Shown: positions 2,207 through 31,540 of the stretch, one piece after another
Layout: the number at the start of each line of letters is the position of its first letter
How positions within the stretch are numbered: position 1 is the first letter of the stretch
Assembly (NCBI GenBank): GCA_000004985.1
Contig: GG738852.1
Reading direction: 5' to 3' (one strand)
Source: Naegleria gruberi
Taxonomy: Eukaryota
DNA length: 64,000 nt
Notes under the pieces: generated by a model
Database searches by the model: none
What the model saw: only the letters and a program-made list of their open reading frames with translations
Told to the model about the DNA's origin: nothing
Made by a program: the position numbers and the translations under genes

Positions 2207-3380
2207 ATGTCCAAAAAGCAAAGAATGGATCCACAAGGTTATCTCTTGGCCACTGATGAAATATCCGTTGTCCTATCATTCATCAATGATCACAAGACAT
2301 TAAATAATTTATCATTGTGTAACAAGGCCATACACAGTCAAATCGATCACATTGTGAATGGTTTGGTAGAAAGTCCACAGAAATTAATAGATTTTTGGAG
2401 AAGTAAATCGATTGATCCTGTTCTTGCATTCACCTATTTGAAGGAGACAAAAATCAAGTTACCATCCTATTCAGAAACTTTATTGAAATCATGCAATATG
2501 CATGTTGATTTGTTTTACAAAGCTTTCAAGTAAGTAGTTGTAGTATTGTTAATCATTATTTCACACATTTTAAAACCAAAACCTACTAAAATCATGATAA
2601 TGAAACAGTCGTTGTCCAGGAGGAAATGTTGATGCATTTATTCTAATGTGGAGACTTTTATTCACACATGATGAAGGACTCAAAGTTTGGCGTTGTTCTG
2701 CAAGAAACTGGGATGGCTCTTATTATGCATATAATCCATTTTGGAGTGAAGAAAAGAAGCCAAATTGGCCACAACTTTTGAAATGTATTATGAAGCAATC
2801 CATCAAGCATAAATCAGTTCTTTTCACCGAATTGATTCCTGAATTTGATAGTGATGAGTATGATACTGATTGGGCTCAAGTTCAAGCTCAAGTTTTTGTT
2901 AATAATGCCAAATTACTTGATTTTAAAAAGAAACTTGTAACAAACAAGAAGGAAAATACTAATCCAATCAAGACAGCTAAGAAATCTAAAAAGTCTAAAA
3001 AATCTGATACACCAACCTTAATTGACCACTCCAATCCATTAACTCTTCTAGATGAAATCAAAGAATTTTGTCAAGTCAAACTTCCTGTAAATGAATCAGA
3101 TGATTTTGAAGATGAGTATGGATCCATGTCAAAATCTGGAAAGGAGTTCAGAAGAGGTGCAAAATCAACTAGTCTTGCTGAAAATGATGGTGATTGTGAT
3201 GACGATTATCATGATGTTTTTGCATCTCATTTGGAAAATATTATTGAGAGAATTAAAAAGATTGAACCAGTTCCACCTAAACAAGTATTGAATCAAGATG
3301 ATGATGATCTAATGATAATGAAGACAATGATGAAGAACAAGATGAAGAGGAAGAGGATGAGGATGAATAAATCATCTTGA
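2207..3380 (+). CDS. Hypothetical protein with F-box-like N-terminus and acidic/lysine-rich C-terminus (2 exons)
   Basis: ORFs 2207..2533 and 2646..3380 join in frame through intron 2530..2608 (gtaagt..acag, 79 nt; phase 2). A-run before the ATG. N-terminal motif ISVVLSFINDHKTLNNLSLCNKAIHSQI. No other recognisable domain. Confidence 0.6.
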
Positions 3381-3475: not shown

Positions 3476-6400
3476 ATGAATAAATTGCGTTCTGTTGTGT
3501 CAAAGAAGAAACAACGTTACCAAAAGGAAGGTTTTGACCTCGACTTGACGTACATTAGTGATCGTGTCATTAGGTAAGTTTCTACTCGAAAGACAATAGT
3601 TTCGAATAAAGAATAGTATGGGTTTCCCTTCAACAGGTGCAGAAAGTTTGTACAGAAATCCTTTGGAAGAAGTAAAATCCTTTTTCCAGTCCAAACACGA
3701 CGACCACTACAAGATTTATAATTTGTGTTCGGAGAAGAATTATGATCCTAGTGTATTTTCGAATCGTGTTGCTAGGTAAGTTTCGAATAGAATAATAATA
3801 GTAACACCTTTTATAGATTCCCATTTGATGACCACAATGCTCCACATTTTTCATTAATTTTGGATTTTTGTGAAGGTGAGTTTAAAGTTTCGAATTGTTT
3901 GATGGAATTGTATAGATGCTTGTCGTTACTTGATGGAAGATAAACAAAATACTCTTGCTGTTCACTGTAAAGGTAAGTCTAAATTGCTATGAATTCATTC
4001 CATTGACATGTGACTTTAGCCGGCAAAGGAAGAACTGTATGTTTTTCTAATAGTATTTGAAAATTAATGTTTTAACAACAAAAAATATCCATTAACAATT
4101 ATCATCAACACACAACCGATATTTCATCATCAATCATACCAATTATGTCATTGCACAAATTTCTCTCTCAAATAGGGTACTATGGTTTCATCTTTGATGA
4201 TTTATACTGGTTTCTGCTCAACTGCATCCGAAGCTATGGAATTATTTGGTAGAATCAGATGTAATGATTCTAAAGGTGTGACTATTCCTTCTCAGAAGAG
4301 GTAAGTTTTGATGCATTTTTCTTCATTTACTAAAGATTTTCAATGTTAATCATTCGATCATTGTGAAATCTCTGAAATAGATATGTTCAATATTTTGAGG
4401 AATGTGTTGTTCATAGAGGAATGAGATTTCCAACAAAAGATGCGAAAATTACACTCAAAGCTGTTCATATGAATTCAGTTCCACACTTTGATAGAGATGA
4501 AGGAAGTGATCCATACTTTGTCATTCATCAACCTTTCTATGATAAGGAAACAAGAGATAATTATCGTATGGAAAAGTTATTTGATTATTCGGTAAGTTGA
4601 TCATTTTACATAATTTGCTGAAATTCACACAATTTGTAGCAAAATGAAAAAGTTAAACATTTAAAGAAGGGAGAGGAAGTTTGGATTAAAAATTTGAATA
4701 TTGACCTTTCTGGTGACTTTAGAATGATTTTCTATGATATGGATAAAGTCAAGAAGGATGAAAAAATGTTCATGCTTTGGTTGAATACAAACTTTTTACA
4801 CTTGCACCAACCTTACAATTCTTCCAATTCAATTCCACATAGAAAATTTTTGGGTCCTAATGATATTGTTGTTAGAATTCCAAAAGTTGAATTGGATAAA
4901 GCTGTAAAAGACAAGAAGAATCAAGCATTTGATGCTGATTTTTATGTTGACTTGATTATTGAAGTGAAGGAACCAAGTCAATATTCTGAACCACACAAAT
5001 TTGTGTACAATACACCAGACAGTGGAAAGGAATTGTTTGGAGAAATTCAACAATACGCTAAAACTGAAGCTTCAAGCAAGGAAAAGGAAAAAGCCAGAAA
5101 ACAATACGAACAAGGTAGAGAATTCTTTGCATTGAAACAATATTCCAATGCTGTTACATCTTTCTCGAATGCTATTTTGATTGATAGTGGATTTGAGGAA
5201 GCTTACATGTCAAGAGGTTTAGCTAACATGAATTTGAAACGTTTCCCTGAAGCAATTTACGATTTCACAACTGTTTTGAATATTCTGGCTAAGGGAACTA
5301 CAAGTTTGGGTGAAGATATTCCAATTCAAGATAGTATTACAATTACTTTAAGAGCATATCACTCCAGAGGTAAATGTCATACTAAAATGAAGGAATATGA
5401 ATTTGCCATCAAGGATTATGATAGTGCCACTTCAATTTTAGAACATGCTCAACATATTGGAAACGATGGATGTTCTACCACTACTGTATCCAACAATAAT
5501 CACTCTACATCTCCTTTCACTGATTCACTCTTCCAAACATTCTTTAGAGTTTATCTCGATAGAGGTCTCATTAACGATGCTCTTCAAAAATACTCTGACT
5601 GTATTATTGATTATACTAACTTTATCAAATATATGGATCCACTCTCTGAATCTCTAGTTGTTAAATTGAGAGAAGGTAAAATAACTGCAAACAAGTATGA
5701 ACAATACTTGTTTGAATTGTTCCAAGCCTTTTACAATAAGGCAATTGCTATTGGAAAGGTCGATAATTATCCTAACAAGGAAACTCAAGTATTCCATGAC
5801 TTGAACAAGGCAGTTGATTATATTGAAAAGATGTCTGACCCAATTAACAGTCCAGATGCTCTAGTATTTGGTCAAGTCTACCTTGCCAGAGGTGATAGAC
5901 AAACAGATAAGGAAGCTGCCATTAACGATTTCCTTAAATGTCTCTTATATGATAAGACTAACAGGATAGCTACAAAGAGATTGGCTGTTTTACTCTATGA
6001 ACAAAAGCAGTACAAGAGAGCTGTTCTCTATTTTTCAAAACTCATCAAGGATGAACCACAAAATGTCAAAATGCTTACCAATAGAGCTATTTGTTATTTA
6101 AAATTGGAACTTTATGAAAATGCCATTGTTGATTTTAAGGCAGCTCAGAATTTATCACCTGATACTATGAATTTATATGTACAATGTGCCAGATGCTACA
6201 GAAGAAAACACGAACTCTCAGACCCAGCTCAAATACCTCAAAAAGAATTGGAAGATTGTGAAATTCAATATTCAACAGCTATTGATTATCTTCAAAAGAG
6301 AAAGAAGGCAGCTACTCCATCCACTCCAAGCACACCAACTCTCTCTTCATCCTCAACTATTAAGGACGATGATCTTAAAACTCTCTACTTTGAACGTGGT

Positions 6401-16677: not shown

Positions 16678-18483
16678 TTAGTAATCATTCCATAATCCAA
16701 TATCCAATTTTTTCTCATTAAGTTCAAATCTTGCACTGTTGTGTCCACAAAGACATTTGCAAATATCATTGAAACAGAATGATTGAATTCCATCAAACAT
16801 ATCTCTTGGAATGATTGGGGAATGATTGGCAATTCCTAGTAAATTTGGAATATCAAAATGCTTTGGAATATTGATATTTAGTGGAGAATCTCTTTCAAGG
16901 TATAAACTAATAATTTGAAGAGCTGTTTCTTTTGTAATTGGTAATTTTCCTGTTTTGAATAGCTCAATATCATACCAAGCTAACATTTGCTCTGGATGGT
17001 AACCTCTTCTTGCAATATCCAAAATTTCTGCATACGCATCTCCTTCTTTTAGTTTGATTGCAACCTCCATTGAAATTTCTTCGCTATTCTTTGAGTCATA
17101 TCTCACAGAATACAAGACAGGAAGGAATATTGTAACAAATTGTTCAATGGTACAATAGAATAACATGCAAGTACCAAAAGGAAAGAAATAGTCAACCAAT
17201 TGGACTATAATATCAATTTGACTAGTAATAATATAAATAAGACAAAAGATGAGTTGGACAACCACTACAGCTAGAGTTTCTTTCTTAATATACCAAATAT
17301 CCTTATCAGTCCTAATAGAAAGAATGACAAATATTGTCTCAATAATTATATAAATAACGGCCTCACATGTAACCAAAATAGAGGTATTCTTCTCCACAGA
17401 ACATCCTCTATCAAATAAAAAGGTTCCTCCATCTACAAAGAAAAGTTTTGTTTCCACAAGCTCATCCGAAACTCCAACTGAGACCCAAAGAGCTACATGT
17501 ATAAAAACAATCAAAATAAGTGCCGGTATTAAGAATTTTGAGCTCAAAAGAAATGAGTAAATTTTGATAAACCTCTTCTTGCGTTCAATGTCCCTGTTTG
17601 ATATTGCAGATGCATTTGTTGTTTTGTTTTCCGAATAAATACTTTGATCATGCATTTCATGTTCATTGCCTAATTCTTTCTGCAATGTAAACAGTTCAAT
17701 TTTTTTCTTACAGAGCTTAAATTTAAAGAAGAGTCTAAAGCATTTGTAAATGGTAGGAAGAAAAATACTTGCAGGAAATAAAAAGTAAATGCTCGAGTAC
17801 AAAATGCATGGAAATGCAGATCTCCCAACTATGAATCTAATACTAAGAATTGATTCAAATATCACATTTCCAGTTAGTGAAAATAATAGAGACAATGGAT
17901 GCCTCTCCTTAATGTGCCTACTCTTCCATTTCCACACTAGGCCAATAAAAGTCAAGAATGTTATCAGTAAATAGATCAAGTAAAATATTGCAGATAGAAT
18001 TGGTGTGAAAATAGTGTCAGGACACAGCCCATAAATCTCTGTAGGCCTCTCCTCTCTCGAATAGCCTCCATTAAACAGAAAAGGATCGCAACTCGTCGCT
18101 ACAGATGCATTATAATTTGGAGTTGTTGAGAGTATGGTATGAAATATTTGGTCCATGTATTCCTTAACTACATGGTCATGCAAGCCTAGATGTTGTGCTA
18201 TTGATTGCACAAACGTATTTTCATTTACAGACGATGATGAAGATGTCAATTCCAAATCATGTTCCGAACAAGTCACAACATTTATCAAAGTACTCATCAA
18301 GGCCACCATTATCAATGTATTTAGAAAAAGCCAGTTAGTTTGTTTCATCTTTTTAAAGCCAAAGTTTATGTTATATTGATGTTGCTGTTGATGTTGTTCT
18401 TCTTTTCGTTGGTGAGTTGATGAAATTGCTTTTGATGTCATTGTGCGTTCATTCTTTTTTTTATGGGATTCAAAAATGTTCAT
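16678..18483 (-). CDS. Seven-transmembrane protein with a C-terminal RGS domain (7TM-RGS)
   Basis: Single ORF. An N-terminal hydrophobic signal-like segment is followed by about seven predicted TM helices (ILSAIFYLIYLLITFLTFIGLVW ... FGTCMLFYCTIEQFVTIFLPVLY). The C-terminal ~130 aa fit the RGS pattern (MLAWYDIELFK....ALQIISLYLERDSPLNINIP....MFDGIQSFCFNDI). Confidence 0.7.
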   Translation of the reverse strand: MNIFESHKKKNERTMTSKAISSTHQRKEEQHQQQHQYNINFGFKKMKQTNWLFLNTLIMVALMSTLINVVTCSEHDLELTSSSSSVNENTFVQSIAQHLGLHDHVVKEYMDQIFHTILSTTPNYNASVATSCDPFLFNGGYSREERPTEIYGLCPDTIFTPILSAIFYLIYLLITFLTFIGLVWKWKSRHIKERHPLSLLFSLTGNVIFESILSIRFIVGRSAFPCILYSSIYFLFPASIFLPTIYKCFRLFFKFKLCKKKIELFTLQKELGNEHEMHDQSIYSENKTTNASAISNRDIERKKRFIKIYSFLLSSKFLIPALILIVFIHVALWVSVGVSDELVETKLFFVDGGTFLFDRGCSVEKNTSILVTCEAVIYIIIETIFVILSIRTDKDIWYIKKETLAVVVVQLIFCLIYIITSQIDIIVQLVDYFFPFGTCMLFYCTIEQFVTIFLPVLYSVRYDSKNSEEISMEVAIKLKEGDAYAEILDIARRGYHPEQMLAWYDIELFKTGKLPITKETALQIISLYLERDSPLNINIPKHFDIPNLLGIANHSPIIPRDMFDGIQSFCFNDICKCLCGHNSARFELNEKKLDIGLWNDY

Positions 18484-18727
18484 AACAATTTACTAATAAA
18501 TAAACTGAAGCACCGTATTGTGGATTTCTTAAATAGTCCTTCAGTGATGAAAATGGTAAAATGAACGATTTTCTTGTTACTTTGTGTTGGCATTTATAAC
18601 ACACTAGTTGAGAAAGTAAACAAGTGATTAAAAATCATTTCAACAATATTGCCAGTTCTCAGCCCGTAAAGAGTTACCTTAATGGAACAGTTTACAAGCA
18701 ACTCAGTAATTGTTTGCGTAAACAACT

Positions 18728-20491
18728 TTATTCTCTGATTTTCACGTGAGGATGGCTTACATGAACCTGTGTTTTATCTTCGTGTTGCTTCAACAGGCTC
18801 ACAATTTTTGTGTGCCCTTCTGTTAGTGCTATTTCCATTGGTGACTGAATTGTTAATGCTGACCAGAGCTGGCAGACAACTTACCAGCTTTTGGTTGTTT
18901 AAAAAAAGTGTTTCAGAGCCAATAATTTTAAATAGTACTTACTTCATCCTTATTTTGTTATAATGGCTTGTAAGGTGGAGAATACATACATTTTTAAAAA
19001 CCCACTACATAATAGAGCTTTAACATGCTTTGTGTTCCTCAACTTACATCCTTAAATAATCGTAAACATCATGTTGATGTGATTATCACATACGAAACTT
19101 ACAGTCTGCATGTTGTTAAACATCATCACACATGCCAGAAACTTACAAACTTTAGGACGTAAAAACAACATTTAACGGAAAATGGACTTACTTGCTTAAT
19201 AATATCACACAACATTATTTACATCAACATCTTAAATACATACTCCTCTTTTAACATCAACTCCTACAACATTCACTAATAATTGAGGAGTCTTCATCAA
19301 TGCATCCATGTTCAATGTTAAAAAAAGCTTACCTCCTATTACATCTTTCAAATGTAAATATTACAAGAAATACTTACATACTAATAATCAAGGTCATTAA
19401 AATTGATTCTTGAAAGCATGTAAAACATACAATCTATGTACATTTAGAAAATCAAATAAGCTGATCACTTACATCCTACATGGAGTGAGATCACTAATTC
19501 ATACTGCATACTTACATACTGGATGGCAAGTGAGTATTCAAATAACGAACATACGTACAGACTTGAATCATTCAAATAATAAGACTATATACATCGAAAG
19601 GTACTCACATACTATCGGATTATTTAAGTGGAGAAAATGGGAGTAACTTACACTCTGACAAATTGTAAAACAAGTTCAAAAGAAGCTCACTTACTCCTTT
19701 GTTGACATCAATCCTTTTTGATTTTAACAATATTTCTACAATGGCTAAATTTTCACTCTTACATGCAACATGAAGGGGACTCTTTTGATCTGTTAGAATG
19801 TCTTCAATCCATGCTACATACATACTAAACAAAAGGAAGAGACAATGGAACAATACGAATTGGAAATGAAACTTACGTAGTTCTATTAGATTGAAAGTCA
19901 ATTTTCCTTGTCAAAAAATTGAAATTGCTTACATTCTTATTACAATAATATTACAGAATAACAAGGATTGAATCTTACATTTTCCTATTTGGAATACTTC
20001 ATGTAATCTTGATTCTGAACTTACATACTAACATTATTATTTCTGATATATTGTTCAAATGCCTAAGACAACTTACTCCTCTATTTACATCAACTTCATC
20101 CCTTTCCACCAATAGTTTTACTATATTGACATGCCCGAACGTACATGCTGTATGTAAGGGAGACTTTTGAGAGATTAATTTCTGGTCTTTCCTCAAACTA
20201 CACTTACATTCTAATCACGCCAAATTCAATTCCTCAGATTATTGATAACTACGTACAGCCTTTTTAATAGAATCCAGTAAATTTTGATATCCACAAACTT
20301 ACTCCTTTATTTACATCAATTCCTTTTATTCCCAACAGAAATTGTACATAATCTGTATCACCTCTCTCACAAGCCTCAATCAATAATGTTTTCCCTTCAA
20401 CTTCATCATTGATAAAGCTTTCAAAATTCCGAATCTGACAAAATTGATGAAAGTTTCCGCTTCTAAGAATATTGAATGCCTTTTGAGCCAT
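18728..20491 (-). CDS. Ankyrin-repeat protein; predicted 27 exons and 26 introns, including chains of 3-nt micro-exons
   Basis: Clear ANK exons:
- 20303..20491: MAQKAF...GKTLLIEACERGDTDYVQFLLGIKGIDVNKG
- 20077..20163: SPLHTACTFGHVNIVKLLVERDEVDVNRG
- 19695..19781: SPLHVACKSENLAIVEILLKSKRIDVNKG
- 19244..19291: TPQLLVNVVGVDVKRG
- 18728..18844: SPMEIALTEGHTKIVSLLKQHEDKTQ...stop
Each is followed by GTAAGT or GTATGT directly after the ..DV(N/K)xG codon (phase 0). The intervening sequence parses entirely into GT-AG units of 39-55 nt separated by exons of 3, 6 or 15 nt. Exons (615 nt) plus introns (1149 nt) sum exactly to the 1764-nt span. The gene call is solid. Micro-exon usage is inferred from splice signals only. 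Confidence 0.65.
18845..19694 (-). other. Micro-exon linker 3 of the ANK gene: 17 introns (39-55 nt) and 16 small exons
   Basis: Small exons, in minus-strand order:
- AGT 19652..19654
- TAT 19609..19611
- TCT 19559..19561
- TAT 19516..19518
- GAT 19473..19475
- ATT 19431..19433
- TAT 19378..19380
- GAG 19333..19335
- 48-nt half-ANK exon 19244..19291
- CAA 19192..19194
- TTT 19147..19149
- ACT 19103..19105
- GAT 19048..19050
- 15-nt exon 18990..19004
- GATGAA 18943..18948
- CTG 18885..18887
Intron lengths are 40, 40, 47, 40, 40, 39, 50, 42, 41, 49, 42, 41, 52, 43, 41, 55 and 40 nt. Confidence 0.5.
19782..20076 (-). other. Micro-exon linker 2 of the ANK gene: 6 introns (49, 40, 43, 50, 52, 40 nt) and 5 micro-exons
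   Basis: Micro-exons TAT (20025..20027), GAAAAT (19979..19984), AAT (19933..19935), AACTAC (19877..19882) and TAT (19822..19824). Each lies directly between an AG acceptor and a GTAAGT, GTAAGA, GTAAGC or GTATGT donor. The last intron ends ..caaaag, and the next exon starts exactly at SPLH. Confidence 0.5.
20164..20302 (-). other. Micro-exon linker 1 of the ANK gene: 3 introns (43, 46, 44 nt) and 2 micro-exons
   Basis: Minus-strand parse:
- intron gtaagt..aaaaag (20260..20302)
- micro-exon GCT (20257..20259)
- intron gtacgt..gattag (20211..20256)
- micro-exon AAT (20208..20210)
- intron gtaagt..caaaag (20164..20207)
The next exon then starts exactly at SPLH. Confidence 0.5.
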
Positions 20492-20582
20492 TTTTTAAGA
20501 GATGATTCATCTCCTCTATTGAGGCTCATCATTATATTTTCAAATGTAATGTAATTCAGTAGTGACAGATGGAAATTACATT

Positions 20583-21185
20583 CTATTCAATTTCGCTCTT
20601 CAATTTTTCATAGATTGTCAAGGCTACTGAATCAGAGTCAATCTTATCCTTTCCCTTGCAGAGTGATTTGGCCATTTCCTTATCAACCTCCACGAGAAGA
20701 AGTTTATGTCTCGATTTACCTCCTCTATCTAAAGTTACTCTTGATTTTGAAACTCCCAAAACACCTGATACGTAATCACATAATTCCTTGTTGGCTTCTC
20801 CTTCTTTTGGTGGTGCAGCAATGTGTACTCCAATTTCTTCATCATTAATATTAGCTATTTGACTTGATGAGCTGTTAGGCTTAGCCAATATTGTCAATCG
20901 GATTGAATAGGGTAAATTTGCAGAGGCAATACTAATTGATTTTGGAATGGCAGTGCTGCTGCTACTTGATGAATTGCTACTACTGGCACTGCTGCTACTT
21001 GTTTCCGTCTTTTTCTTAGGAGCCATGATGGTAGTGAATGACGATGAATTAAATCTTTGATATGAACAGTGAGTGTGATATTCTGAGAGTGAACTAATCG
21101 GTGGTGAATAGATTAATGATGATGAGCCAATAATAATATTGTTATGTTTCTGATGAAGATGTCTTATCAAGCCTCTCTTCAACAT
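20583..21185 (-). CDS. DUF167/YggU (UPF0235) family protein with an S-rich N-terminal extension
   Basis: Single ORF with a genuine ATG. The C-terminal ~90 aa ([72 protein letters not shown]) fit the DUF167 pattern (AkP.ak...i......l.v.iaApp.eGeAN.eL..yl...Lgv.ks.v.l..G..SR.K). Confidence 0.65.
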
Positions 21186-30138: not shown

Positions 30139-31540
30139 ATGTCTCAACTCATGGTTCGAAGCTATTCATTCCTCCTGTTGATGATGCTCTTGAGTGCAGT
30201 ATTGATGATGTTCATCTCAGCAGCATCACCAATGAATGCTCAATCCACCAGAGCATCCAATGTTCTTTCATTATTGAATGAAAAGAAGGAACAATTAGAG
30301 AAGGTAAATAATGGCTTGTCGGAAACGAGCTTGTTGATGATTGCAAGCAAGAGGGAACAATCTTCCCCTCTCTACACTGCCTACAGTGAGGAAAAGAATA
30401 GAATTTATAATGTATTGGTAGCAACAAAGGCAGAATTGGAATATGAAGTTCAACTTCCTTCAAAAATTATACAATTCATCGATCAATGAATCAACAACCT
30501 CAACAACAAGTGAAGCAGATTTGAAAAAGCAGATGAAACTTGAGCAAGAAGCTGCTGCTGTCAAGAAAGTAGAACAAGAAAGAAAATTGAAAGAGGAACA
30601 GGAAAAGAAGATTAAGGAAGAACAAGAAAAGAAACTGAAATTAGAACAAGAAGCTACTGTTGTTGCTGCCAAGAAAGCAGAACAAGAAAAGAAGATTAAG
30701 GAAGAACAAGAGAGAAAACTCAAAGCTGCTGAAGAAGAAGAAAGAAAGTTGAAAGAAGAAGCTGCTAAAAAAGCTGAACAAGAGAAAAAACTGAAAGAAG
30801 AACAAGAAAAGAAATTGAAATTAGAACAAGAAGCTGCTGCTGTCAAGAAAGCAGAACAAGAAAGAATTCAAAAGGAAGAGCAAGCGAGAAAAGCACTCGA
30901 ACTTGAAAGAAAGGCAGAACAAGAAAGAAAGGCCAAGGAAGAAAAAAGAATCCAAGAAGAAAGAGATAGATTAATCCCAACTATTGGTGAATTGGTCGAT
31001 TCTGATTTATTGACACCTTCTCAATCTGAAAGATTTATGAAAGAAATCATGAAAGGAGTCAACCAACAATTACCTCACAGAATTTGGAAAGCCAAGAAGC
31101 ACGGCTCATCAATTGCTAATTTCCATGCTACATGTGATAACATGGGACCAACCATTGTGTTGGCCAAGACTAGAAATGGAGCTGTATTTGGAGCCTATTC
31201 AAAGATTTCATATTCCCTATCAGGTGATTATGTTTCTGATCCAGCTGCTTTTATGTTTAGTTTGATTTCGGCTGAGGGAGAACAAAGATTTGTCAAGTTG
31301 ACCCAAACACCACAAATTGTTGATGGAAAACAAACTTATCCAACTTCAAAGATTCATAACGCAAATCATTTGATTACTTTTGGAGGTGGTTATGACTTGC
31401 TCATATCAGACAATACTGTTAGCTTGAGTTCTTCCCTTGTTTGTCATACTTATTGTGCTCCACAAGTTACAAATCCAAAGACTTACCTTGCTGGTGAAAG
31501 AACATTTATGATTGACGATTTTGAAGTTTATAGAGTTTAA
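30139..31540 (+). CDS. TLDc-domain protein with a long charged coiled-coil repeat; possible signal-anchor first exon
   Basis: The main ORF 30443..31540 ends in a TLDc domain (HRIWKAKKHGSSIANFHATCDNMGPTIVLAKTRNGAVFGAYS...PAAFMFSL...FGGGYDLLISDN). That frame is open from 30422, directly after an AG. ORF 30139.. (MSQLMVRSYSFLLLMMLLSAVLMMFISAAS, ATG after an A-rich context) reaches a phase-0 GTAAAT donor at 30304. A tentative 118-nt intron 30304..30421 would therefore join the two in frame. Confidence 0.65.
30540..30960 (+). repeat. Degenerate in-frame coding repeat (K/E/Q-rich coiled coil) inside the TLDc gene
   Basis: Reiterated KLKEEQEKK(I/L)K(L)EQEAAAVKKAEQE(R/K)K units. The same DNA gives the spurious S/C/F-rich antisense ORF 30460..30846. 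Confidence 0.7.

Follow-up and report, generated by a model that had tools for sequence, protein, structure and literature searches.

The ankyrin-repeat gene described here lies on the minus strand of a 64,000-nt stretch of Naegleria gruberi contig GG738852.1 (assembly GCA_000004985.1), referred to below as the window, and is predicted to occupy positions 18728..20491. Its coding sequence appears to be broken up by 26 GT..AG units of 39-55 nt each, which can be parsed as an unambiguous chain along 20302..18845. Judged from the sequence, each of these units is probably a U2-type GT-AG intron in its own right, of near-minimal length and spliced individually; the small gene that houses them encodes five ankyrin repeats. 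Removal of the units leaves a single open frame from the ATG at 20491 to the TAA at 18728, corresponding to a coding sequence of 615 nt and a product of 204 amino acids. The arrangement of the units exceeds chance expectation by a wide margin: chains of 9, 8, 6 and 3-4 units in succession are found only at this locus, and elsewhere in the 64 kb no chain exceeds 2; the same chain search applied to 200 shuffles gave maxima of 2-3, and once 4. A pattern of three consecutive units was matched twice at the locus and in 0 of 100 shuffles.

Layout of the gene and its predicted product

The 26 units are distributed over four runs of 3, 6, 9 and 8, all of which fall in loops between ankyrin repeats. 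In all four cases the run starts just after the Gly codon of a DV(N/K)-(K/R)-G motif and ends just before (S/T)-P. The large exons correspond to the repeat bodies and measure 189, 87, 87, 48 and 117 nt. Of the 25 internal exons, 18 are 3 nt long, three are 6 nt and one is 15 nt, the other three being repeat bodies; every one of these lengths is a multiple of 3, which puts each of the 26 introns in phase 0. There are no stop codons among the micro-exons, and the splice dinucleotides are intact at 52 of 52 positions. A preliminary description of this DNA had counted 26 units and had singled out seven of exactly 40 nt; the full parse returns both numbers, and each of the seven is a GT..AG unit on the minus strand with precisely the coordinates that it had given. 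The same description put most of the remaining units at 41-43 nt, which is true of only 8 of 19. The complete length distribution is one unit of 39 nt, seven of 40, three of 41, two of 42, three of 43, one each of 44, 46 and 47, two each of 49, 50 and 52, and one of 55 nt. The surrounding genome is compact and AT-rich, with about 33% GC. The predicted features are given below; they are based on the donor/acceptor parse and translation, except where a further basis is named.

18728..20491, minus strand: whole predicted ankyrin-repeat gene, 27 exons, 26 introns, 204-aa product
20303..20491, minus: exon 1, 189 nt, 63 aa; N-terminal cap and ankyrin repeat 1, ending ..GIDVNKG (parse and Pfam)
20260..20302, minus: intron 1, 43 nt, GTAAGT..AAG; then micro-exon GCT (20257-20259, Ala)
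20211..20256, minus: intron 2, 46 nt, GTACGT..TAG; then micro-exon AAT (20208-20210, Asn)
20164..20207, minus: intron 3, 44 nt, GTAAGT..AAG
20077..20163, minus: exon 4, 87 nt; ankyrin repeat 2, SPLHTACTFGHVNIVKLLVERDEVDVNRG (parse and Pfam)
20028..20076, minus: intron 4, 49 nt, GTAAGT..TAG; then micro-exon TAT (20025-20027, Tyr)
19985..20024, minus: intron 5, 40 nt, GTAAGT..TAG; then micro-exon GAAAAT (19979-19984, Glu-Asn)
19936..19978, minus: intron 6, 43 nt, GTAAGA..AAG; then micro-exon AAT (19933-19935, Asn)
19883..19932, minus: intron 7, 50 nt, GTAAGC..TAG; then micro-exon AACTAC (19877-19882, Asn-Tyr)
19825..19876, minus: intron 8, 52 nt, GTAAGT..TAG; then micro-exon TAT (19822-19824, Tyr)
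19782..19821, minus: intron 9, 40 nt, GTATGT..AAG
19695..19781, minus: exon 10, 87 nt; ankyrin repeat 3, SPLHVACKSENLAIVEILLKSKRIDVNKG (parse and Pfam)
19655..19694, minus: intron 10, 40 nt, GTAAGT..CAG; then micro-exon AGT (19652-19654, Ser)
19612..19651, minus: intron 11, 40 nt, GTAAGT..TAG; then micro-exon TAT (19609-19611, Tyr)
19562..19608, minus: intron 12, 47 nt, GTGAGT..AAG; then micro-exon TCT (19559-19561, Ser)
19519..19558, minus: intron 13, 40 nt, GTACGT..CAG; then micro-exon TAT (19516-19518, Tyr)
19476..19515, minus: intron 14, 40 nt, GTAAGT..TAG; then micro-exon GAT (19473-19475, Asp)
19434..19472, minus: intron 15, 39 nt, GTAAGT..TAG; then micro-exon ATT (19431-19433, Ile)
19381..19430, minus: intron 16, 50 nt, GTATGT..TAG; then micro-exon TAT (19378-19380, Tyr)
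19336..19377, minus: intron 17, 42 nt, GTAAGT..TAG; then micro-exon GAG (19333-19335, Glu)
19292..19332, minus: intron 18, 41 nt, GTAAGC..AAG
19244..19291, minus: exon 19, 48 nt; truncated ankyrin repeat 4, TPQLLVNVVGVDVKRG
19195..19243, minus: intron 19, 49 nt, GTATGT..AAG; then micro-exon CAA (19192-19194, Gln)
19150..19191, minus: intron 20, 42 nt, GTAAGT..AAG; then micro-exon TTT (19147-19149, Phe)
19106..19146, minus: intron 21, 41 nt, GTAAGT..CAG; then micro-exon ACT (19103-19105, Thr)
19051..19102, minus: intron 22, 52 nt, GTAAGT..AAG; then micro-exon GAT (19048-19050, Asp)
19005..19047, minus: intron 23, 43 nt, GTAAGT..TAG; then 15-nt exon TGGGTTTTTAAAAAT (18990-19004, WVFKN)
18949..18989, minus: intron 24, 41 nt, GTATGT..AAG; then micro-exon GATGAA (18943-18948, Asp-Glu)
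18888..18942, minus: intron 25, 55 nt, GTAAGT..AAG; then micro-exon CTG (18885-18887, Leu)
18845..18884, minus: intron 26, 40 nt, GTAAGT..CAG
18728..18844, minus: last exon, 117 nt with stop; ankyrin repeat 5 / C-cap, SPMEIALTEGHTKIVSLLKQHEDKTQVHVSHPHVKIRE*

The spliced product is readily recognized by Pfam as Ank_2 (E=1.7e-33, 115.5 bits against a cut-off of 27.3) and as Ank (76.5 bits, cut-off 21.1). Without the micro-exons the Ank_2 match stands at 101.8 bits and E=3.2e-29. The distance from one (S/T)-P to the next is 30, 35, 38 and 28 aa when the micro-exon residues are included, with a mean of 32.75 against the canonical 33, and 28, 29, 29 and 16 aa, with a mean of 25.5, when they are left out. 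Residues 37-203 align to exactly 167 residues of the ankyrin 4rlv_A in a phmmer search of the PDB. The spacing, the alignment and the Pfam score thus give indirect support to the view that the micro-exons are part of the message. They would contribute 29 of the 204 residues, including 6 Tyr, 5 Asn, 3 Asp, 3 Glu and 2 Ser, and these residues map to hairpin positions in alignments to designed ankyrin repeat proteins (DARPins) and ankyrins. Three-frame translation of the runs, in which all frames are rich in stops, revealed no hidden ankyrin exons or coding sequence, and the N-terminus of the 204-aa product is not a signal peptide.

Several details of the parse deserve mention in their own right. 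The repeat 4 exon lacks about 13 residues of the helix region, and the micro-exon residues SYSYDIYE, which come just before this repeat, fill the place of helix 1 in the ankyrin alignment. The end of this exon was grouped with the other three repeat ends as family D1 in a repeat search. Within intron 19, positions 19216-19231 (minus strand GATGTTGATGTAAATA, which reads D-V-D-V-N) are identical at 15 of 16 positions to the end of exon 4 at 20082-20097 (..VDVN). This match forms repeat-search family D8; by a rough estimate ~0.1 matches of its kind would be expected by chance, and it looks like the remnant of a repeat end that has turned intronic. Intron 17 has an alternative acceptor 3 nt downstream that would directly adjoin the next donor. 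The last exon also holds an extra possible GTAAGC donor at 18760 with an AG 59 nt downstream (18702-18760), use of which would alter the C-terminus to ..KTQVH|LLVNCSIKV..

Splice signals, unit interiors and strain divergence

The donors of the array begin with GT in 26 of 26 units, with a purine (A or G) at +3 and G at +5 in every case. The full GTAAGT is found in 16 of 26, compared with 13 of the 17 ordinary introns of the window, the others being GTATGT, GTACGT, GTAAGC, GTAAGA and GTGAGT. All acceptors end in AG, as AAG (11), TAG (11) or CAG (4). The 17 ordinary introns are 40-71 nt long with a median of 46 nt, and the array units are slightly shorter (median 42.5 nt, p=0.035). The preliminary description had suggested that 40 nt is close to a lower limit for splicing, and within the window 40 nt is indeed the lower edge of intron lengths, the minimum of the array being 39 nt. 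The 40-nt intron at 3876..3915 that it had adduced in this connection is real, with GTGAGT..TAG ends; the exons of the gene around it read as PTEN by comparison with the human sequence. An RNA-seq dataset for N. gruberi, PRJEB23822, is cited in PMC6142364.

Lengths that are multiples of 3 are depleted among the units (3/26, p=0.011), as would be expected if retained introns have to break the frame. Intron 15 has such a length and yet contains an in-frame TGA, and intron 20 is the sole multiple-of-3 intron of the array without an in-frame stop. An excess of 3n+1 lengths (16/26) is not significant apart from the multiple-of-3 depletion (16 vs 7).

The interiors of the units had been called unrelated by eye, and pairwise alignment of the units bears this out. 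Over 325 unit pairs, no Smith-Waterman local alignment scores above 20, whereas shuffled sets reach a mean maximum of 22.3; ungapped identity between interiors averages 29.5%, and 29.4 +/- 0.5% in shuffles. Tandem Repeats Finder (TRF) returned no rows in the array at a minimum score of 30, and a repeat search of the locus recovered the family of four ankyrin exon ends only, not the units. As the interiors are unrelated, the units look like independent working introns rather than a repeat array. Units that lie next to each other resemble one another marginally more than units farther apart do (p=0.053), a likeness carried by two shared 10-mers; because of this p value, and because one of the two 10-mers is the TTGAAT motif itself, residual neighbor similarity was set aside as evidence.

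Donor, AG and length do persist across the units, as had been noted, but they are not the only things to do so. The tetramer TTGA occurs in 13-14 of 26 units (13 within the defined interior, 14 over the whole intron; z=3.6 against shuffles), leaving about 12 without an exact copy, and TTGAA occurs in 8 of 26 (z=4.9). All the spacers, in addition, are in-frame multiples of 3. Twelve of 14 ordinary introns in the window also contain TTGA, which may represent the branch site. An Rfam scan of 18400-20700 on both strands gave no matches at E<=1, and the units would thus appear to host no known small RNAs.

A comparison with a second strain is available for the first third of the array. When exon 1 was queried against 1.84 billion representatives, it retrieved a 74-aa open reading frame (ORF), P0128, which is identical at 62 of 63 positions to exon 1 and runs on into intron 1. 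Its contig, L121, comprises 3,744 nt of an ENA metagenome and is collinear with the window across an MFS gene, a DUF167 gene and ankyrin exon 1, with 97% identity over the ankyrin part. Running from exon 1 as far as the beginning of intron 8, the contig covers 7 units, and look-ups of read-through ORFs found no further second-strain sequence beyond that point. All 7 units are present, with lengths of 43, 46, 44, 43, 40, 43 and 46 nt. The micro-exons read GCT, AAT, TAT, GAAAAT, AAT and AACTAT, the sole change being a synonymous TAC>TAT. Intron 1 is GTAAGC..AAG at 43 nt, intron 2 is identical to the window copy, intron 3 has a CAG acceptor, and intron 5 is 40 nt long with an AAG acceptor. Two introns differ in length: intron 4 (43 vs 49 nt) by a 6-nt indel in addition to substitutions, and intron 7 (46 vs 50 nt) by a 4-nt indel. 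Exon 4 shows 0 differences in 87 nt.

Overall, the units carry 12 substitutions in 323 nt plus the 6- and 4-nt indels, compared with 2 in 300 nt for exons (p=0.013), and divergence of the unit interiors is about 8-fold that of the 2.5 kb of flanking sequence (9/254 vs 11/2530, p=2.6e-5). Such fast divergence would soon erase any likeness between interiors, so that their being unrelated rules out recent duplication only. The constant number of units over the 7 compared argues against a dynamic minisatellite. The preliminary description had likewise argued against a recent tandem duplication or minisatellite, and the random-level identity, the TRF result and the shared unit number over 7 units in two strains all agree with it. 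Its proposal that each unit is kept as a functional minimal intron also gains support, if indirectly, from the 52 intact dinucleotides, the shared TTGA, the length depletion, the Ank_2 frame that emerges on removal and the faster divergence of units than exons.

Proposed splicing and origin, and alternative explanations

In the proposed mechanism, each unit would be equipped with a 5' splice site, a presumed branch site of the TTGA type and an AG of its own, and the remainder of each interior would be unconstrained and have drifted to random similarity. Neighboring introns of a run would be spliced one by one, and the in-frame micro-exons would be kept in the mRNA, adding Tyr/Asn-rich residues to the beta-hairpin/loop between repeats.

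A number of observations weigh against individually spliced introns. Single-codon exons between 40-nt introns leave scant room for adjacent spliceosomes. Two protein searches did not turn up a gene model for the locus, and apparently, therefore, nobody has confirmed the transcript. The splice sites of the array appear slightly weaker than constitutive sites, with AAG acceptors in 11 of 26 units against 1 of 17 ordinary introns (p=0.014) and G at exon position -1 in 2 of 26 against 11 of 17 (p=1e-4). The GT/AG dinucleotides are kept at 15 of 15 sites in the second strain, a result with a chance expectation of ~1 in 3, so that the comparison is too shallow to speak for splice-site conservation. 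The base before the donor is mostly T in the array, where the spacers are TAT (five times), AAT, GAT, AGT, TCT, ATT and others; the bias at this position may reflect codon choice, a splicing need of tiny exons, or an ancestral unit that contained TAT.

One alternative accepts the introns as real and has donor i pair with any acceptor j>i, so that the array would act as a combinatorial cassette and give rise to many isoforms. These would differ in how long the ankyrin hairpin loops, the usual binding surface, are and in how much Tyr, Asn, Ser and Asp they contain. In schistosome micro-exon genes, the skipping of in-frame micro-exons leads to protein variation. The cassette explanation fits the fact that every micro-exon length is a multiple of 3, the weaker acceptors and unusual -1 base relative to constitutive introns, the 6 Tyr, 5 Asn, 3 Asp and 2 Ser among the 29 micro-exon residues, and the hairpin positions to which these residues map, and it has a parallel in the Schistosoma genes (PMC10526429). 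Skipping would, however, create introns of at least 83 nt, whereas lengths of 40-55 nt predominate among the window's ordinary introns, and the protein has neither a signal peptide nor any other hint of a role in recognition. We regard this explanation as unlikely. In an extended form, since all the micro-exons are in frame and flanked by interchangeable minimal introns, combinatorial pairing of donors and acceptors would be possible, and the runs of single-codon exons would constitute an RNA-level generator of diversity, with up to 2^22 inclusion patterns varying four hairpin loops on the ankyrin scaffold of a free-living protist; such a role seems quite improbable. On a related and similarly speculative reading, the need for 26 successful splicing events would make the output of the gene an ultrasensitive read-out of spliceosome capacity.

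It is conceivable, though quite doubtful, that the gene has four long composite introns of 139, 295, 403 and 399 nt, excised as 20302-20164, 20076-19782, 19694-19292 and 19243-18845. The runs would then be removed mostly whole, or the micro-exons mostly skipped, the internal GT and AG sites would be cryptic or rarely used, and the main product would be a protein of 175 aa with 2-residue loops. The frequency of AAG among the array acceptors (11/26) speaks for such weak internal sites, 3-nt exons are difficult to define, and the skipped product is still an ankyrin (Ank_2 E=3.2e-29); long introns do exist in N. gruberi, where the annotated mean is 203 bp (PMC8296547). Unused sites would nevertheless not be expected to form 22 internal donor/acceptor pairs that are in frame, free of stops and 39-55 nt apart, and the strong internal GTAAGT donors would compete with the outer donor. 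Omission of the micro-exons also brings the repeat spacing to 28, 29, 29 and 16 aa, far off the canonical 33, and lowers the Pfam score by 13.7 bits.

That the GT..AG pattern is the relic of a repeated unit, in a decaying tandem repeat, a minisatellite or an unspliced pseudogene remnant, is very improbable. In its favor are a quasi-regular period (unit and spacer together have a modal length of 43 nt), the fivefold occurrence of the TAT spacer and the marginally greater likeness of adjacent units (p=0.053). Against it, TRF detects nothing, interior identity equals the shuffle expectation, the second strain has an equal unit count over the 7 units compared, none of the 52 splice dinucleotides is lost and the frame of 204 codons is unbroken, the exons are better conserved between strains than the units, and true minisatellites that match the same pattern in metagenomes have near-identical units.

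If the units are individually spliced introns, their origin may be sought in one ancestral phase-0 intron per repeat that gave rise to many in the distant past, whether an [intron + codon] unit was duplicated or a longer intron became subdivided into units of a preferred size. A single ancestral intron per repeat is favored by the shared phase 0 of all 26 introns and by their occurrence at the same site in four loops. Because 26 independent insertions would give mixed phases, duplication or subdivision is to be preferred to independent insertion, and although either route would account for the all-phase-0 pattern, an ancient [intron + codon] duplication would do so most easily. Recent duplication, on the sequences compared, is ruled out.

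Related systems, neighboring genes and significance

The array units resemble ordinary short U2-type introns, both of N. gruberi and of other short-intron protists, in their GTAAGT-type donor, their AG, their TTGA-like motif and their length range. In Paramecium, short introns are reportedly depleted in multiple-of-3 lengths, as Jaillon and colleagues are said to have described in 2008, and the depletion in the array resembles this. The units differ from ordinary introns in being mostly one codon apart, in their more frequent AAG, in having T for G at -1 and in their shorter median. They differ also in density, the array having 26 introns in a coding sequence of 615 nt whereas the N. gruberi genome has a mean of 1.7 exons, or 0.7 introns, per gene, with a mean intron length of 203 bp (PMC8296547).

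The micro-exon genes (MEGs) of Schistosoma likewise contain runs of in-frame, or 'symmetrical', micro-exons, down to 3 bp, within one gene (PMC10526429). In MEGs, however, the exons are 3-81 bp and the introns are long, up to 5 kb, and the products are secreted, largely disordered and mostly encoded by micro-exons (PMC10526429). The N. gruberi gene, in contrast, belongs to a heterolobosean and has introns of 39-55 nt, only 29 of 204 residues from micro-exons, a folded ankyrin domain and no signal peptide. Isolated 3-nt micro-exons of animals, such as those of Drosophila homothorax and human MAP4K5, are comparable in that single codons are retained in the mRNA (PMC7392893, PMC8632122). They are, though, lone exons between long introns and are often regulated, and the literature on them reports no series of 8-9 consecutive single-codon exons.

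Introns that arise from tandem arrays or duplication (Zhuo et al. 2007, cited in PMC3488318; Lehmann et al. 2010, PMC2891723) have in common with the array several adjacent splice-site pairs in regular order. Duplication of a unit bearing splice signals is a plausible origin of the array. The units of tandem-duplication introns are still recognizably similar, whereas those of the array show random-level similarity and a stable number (two strains, 7 units). Recursive splicing, with its zero-length exons and AG|GTAAGT ratchet sites, is alike in that a long non-coding sequence is taken out stepwise via juxtaposed internal acceptor and donor sites. At all 22 internal junctions of the array, though, 3, 6 or 15 nt separate AG from GT, so that each splicing step would add codons to the mRNA, where a recursive step leaves none behind. 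Introners, or introner-like elements, also place many introns in one genome region or gene, but they are families of near-identical copies across genes, whereas the array units share no interior similarity.

A metagenome scan for three tandem GTAAGT..AG-NNN units yielded, among the matches listed, only (GTAA)n microsatellites and near-identical minisatellites, and no analogue. Microsatellites rich in (GTAA)n or GTAAGT match the tandem-intron pattern abundantly (JGI metagenome contigs L010, L022, L038, L050, L074, L079 and others), and genome-wide screens for intron arrays therefore need low-complexity filtering. In the literature, no account of serial single-codon exon arrays or of Naegleria micro-exons was found.

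Some neighboring features of the window can be noted separately. Directly downstream of the ankyrin gene, at 16678-18483, lies a 601-aa multi-pass membrane ORF, for which a word-indexed protein search, a lossy method that also missed P0128, gave no match at E<=1e-10. Upstream, a DUF167-like ORF (PF02594) at 20583-21185 differs from its counterpart at 2449-3027 of the second-strain contig by 24 gap columns and 9 substitutions, more than the neighboring MFS gene does, probably through length variation in a Ser-rich tract. A TLDc-like ORF with a Glu/Lys-rich repeat is found on the plus strand at 30443-31540, and the long antisense ORF at 30460-30846 (minus strand) is probably a compositional artefact of this repeat. 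The COX10 ORF of the window matches an N. gruberi protein at 100% identity over 425 aa and shows 72% identity to N. fowleri, which marks the window as nuclear DNA of N. gruberi.

If transcripts bear out the parse, the ankyrin gene would have about 42 introns per kb of coding sequence, against some 6-7 per kb in intron-rich genomes, and up to eight single-codon exons in series. Such an arrangement would bear on the minimum distance that can separate two spliceosomal introns, on the local birth and multiplication of introns, and on why gene finders overlook genes of this kind.

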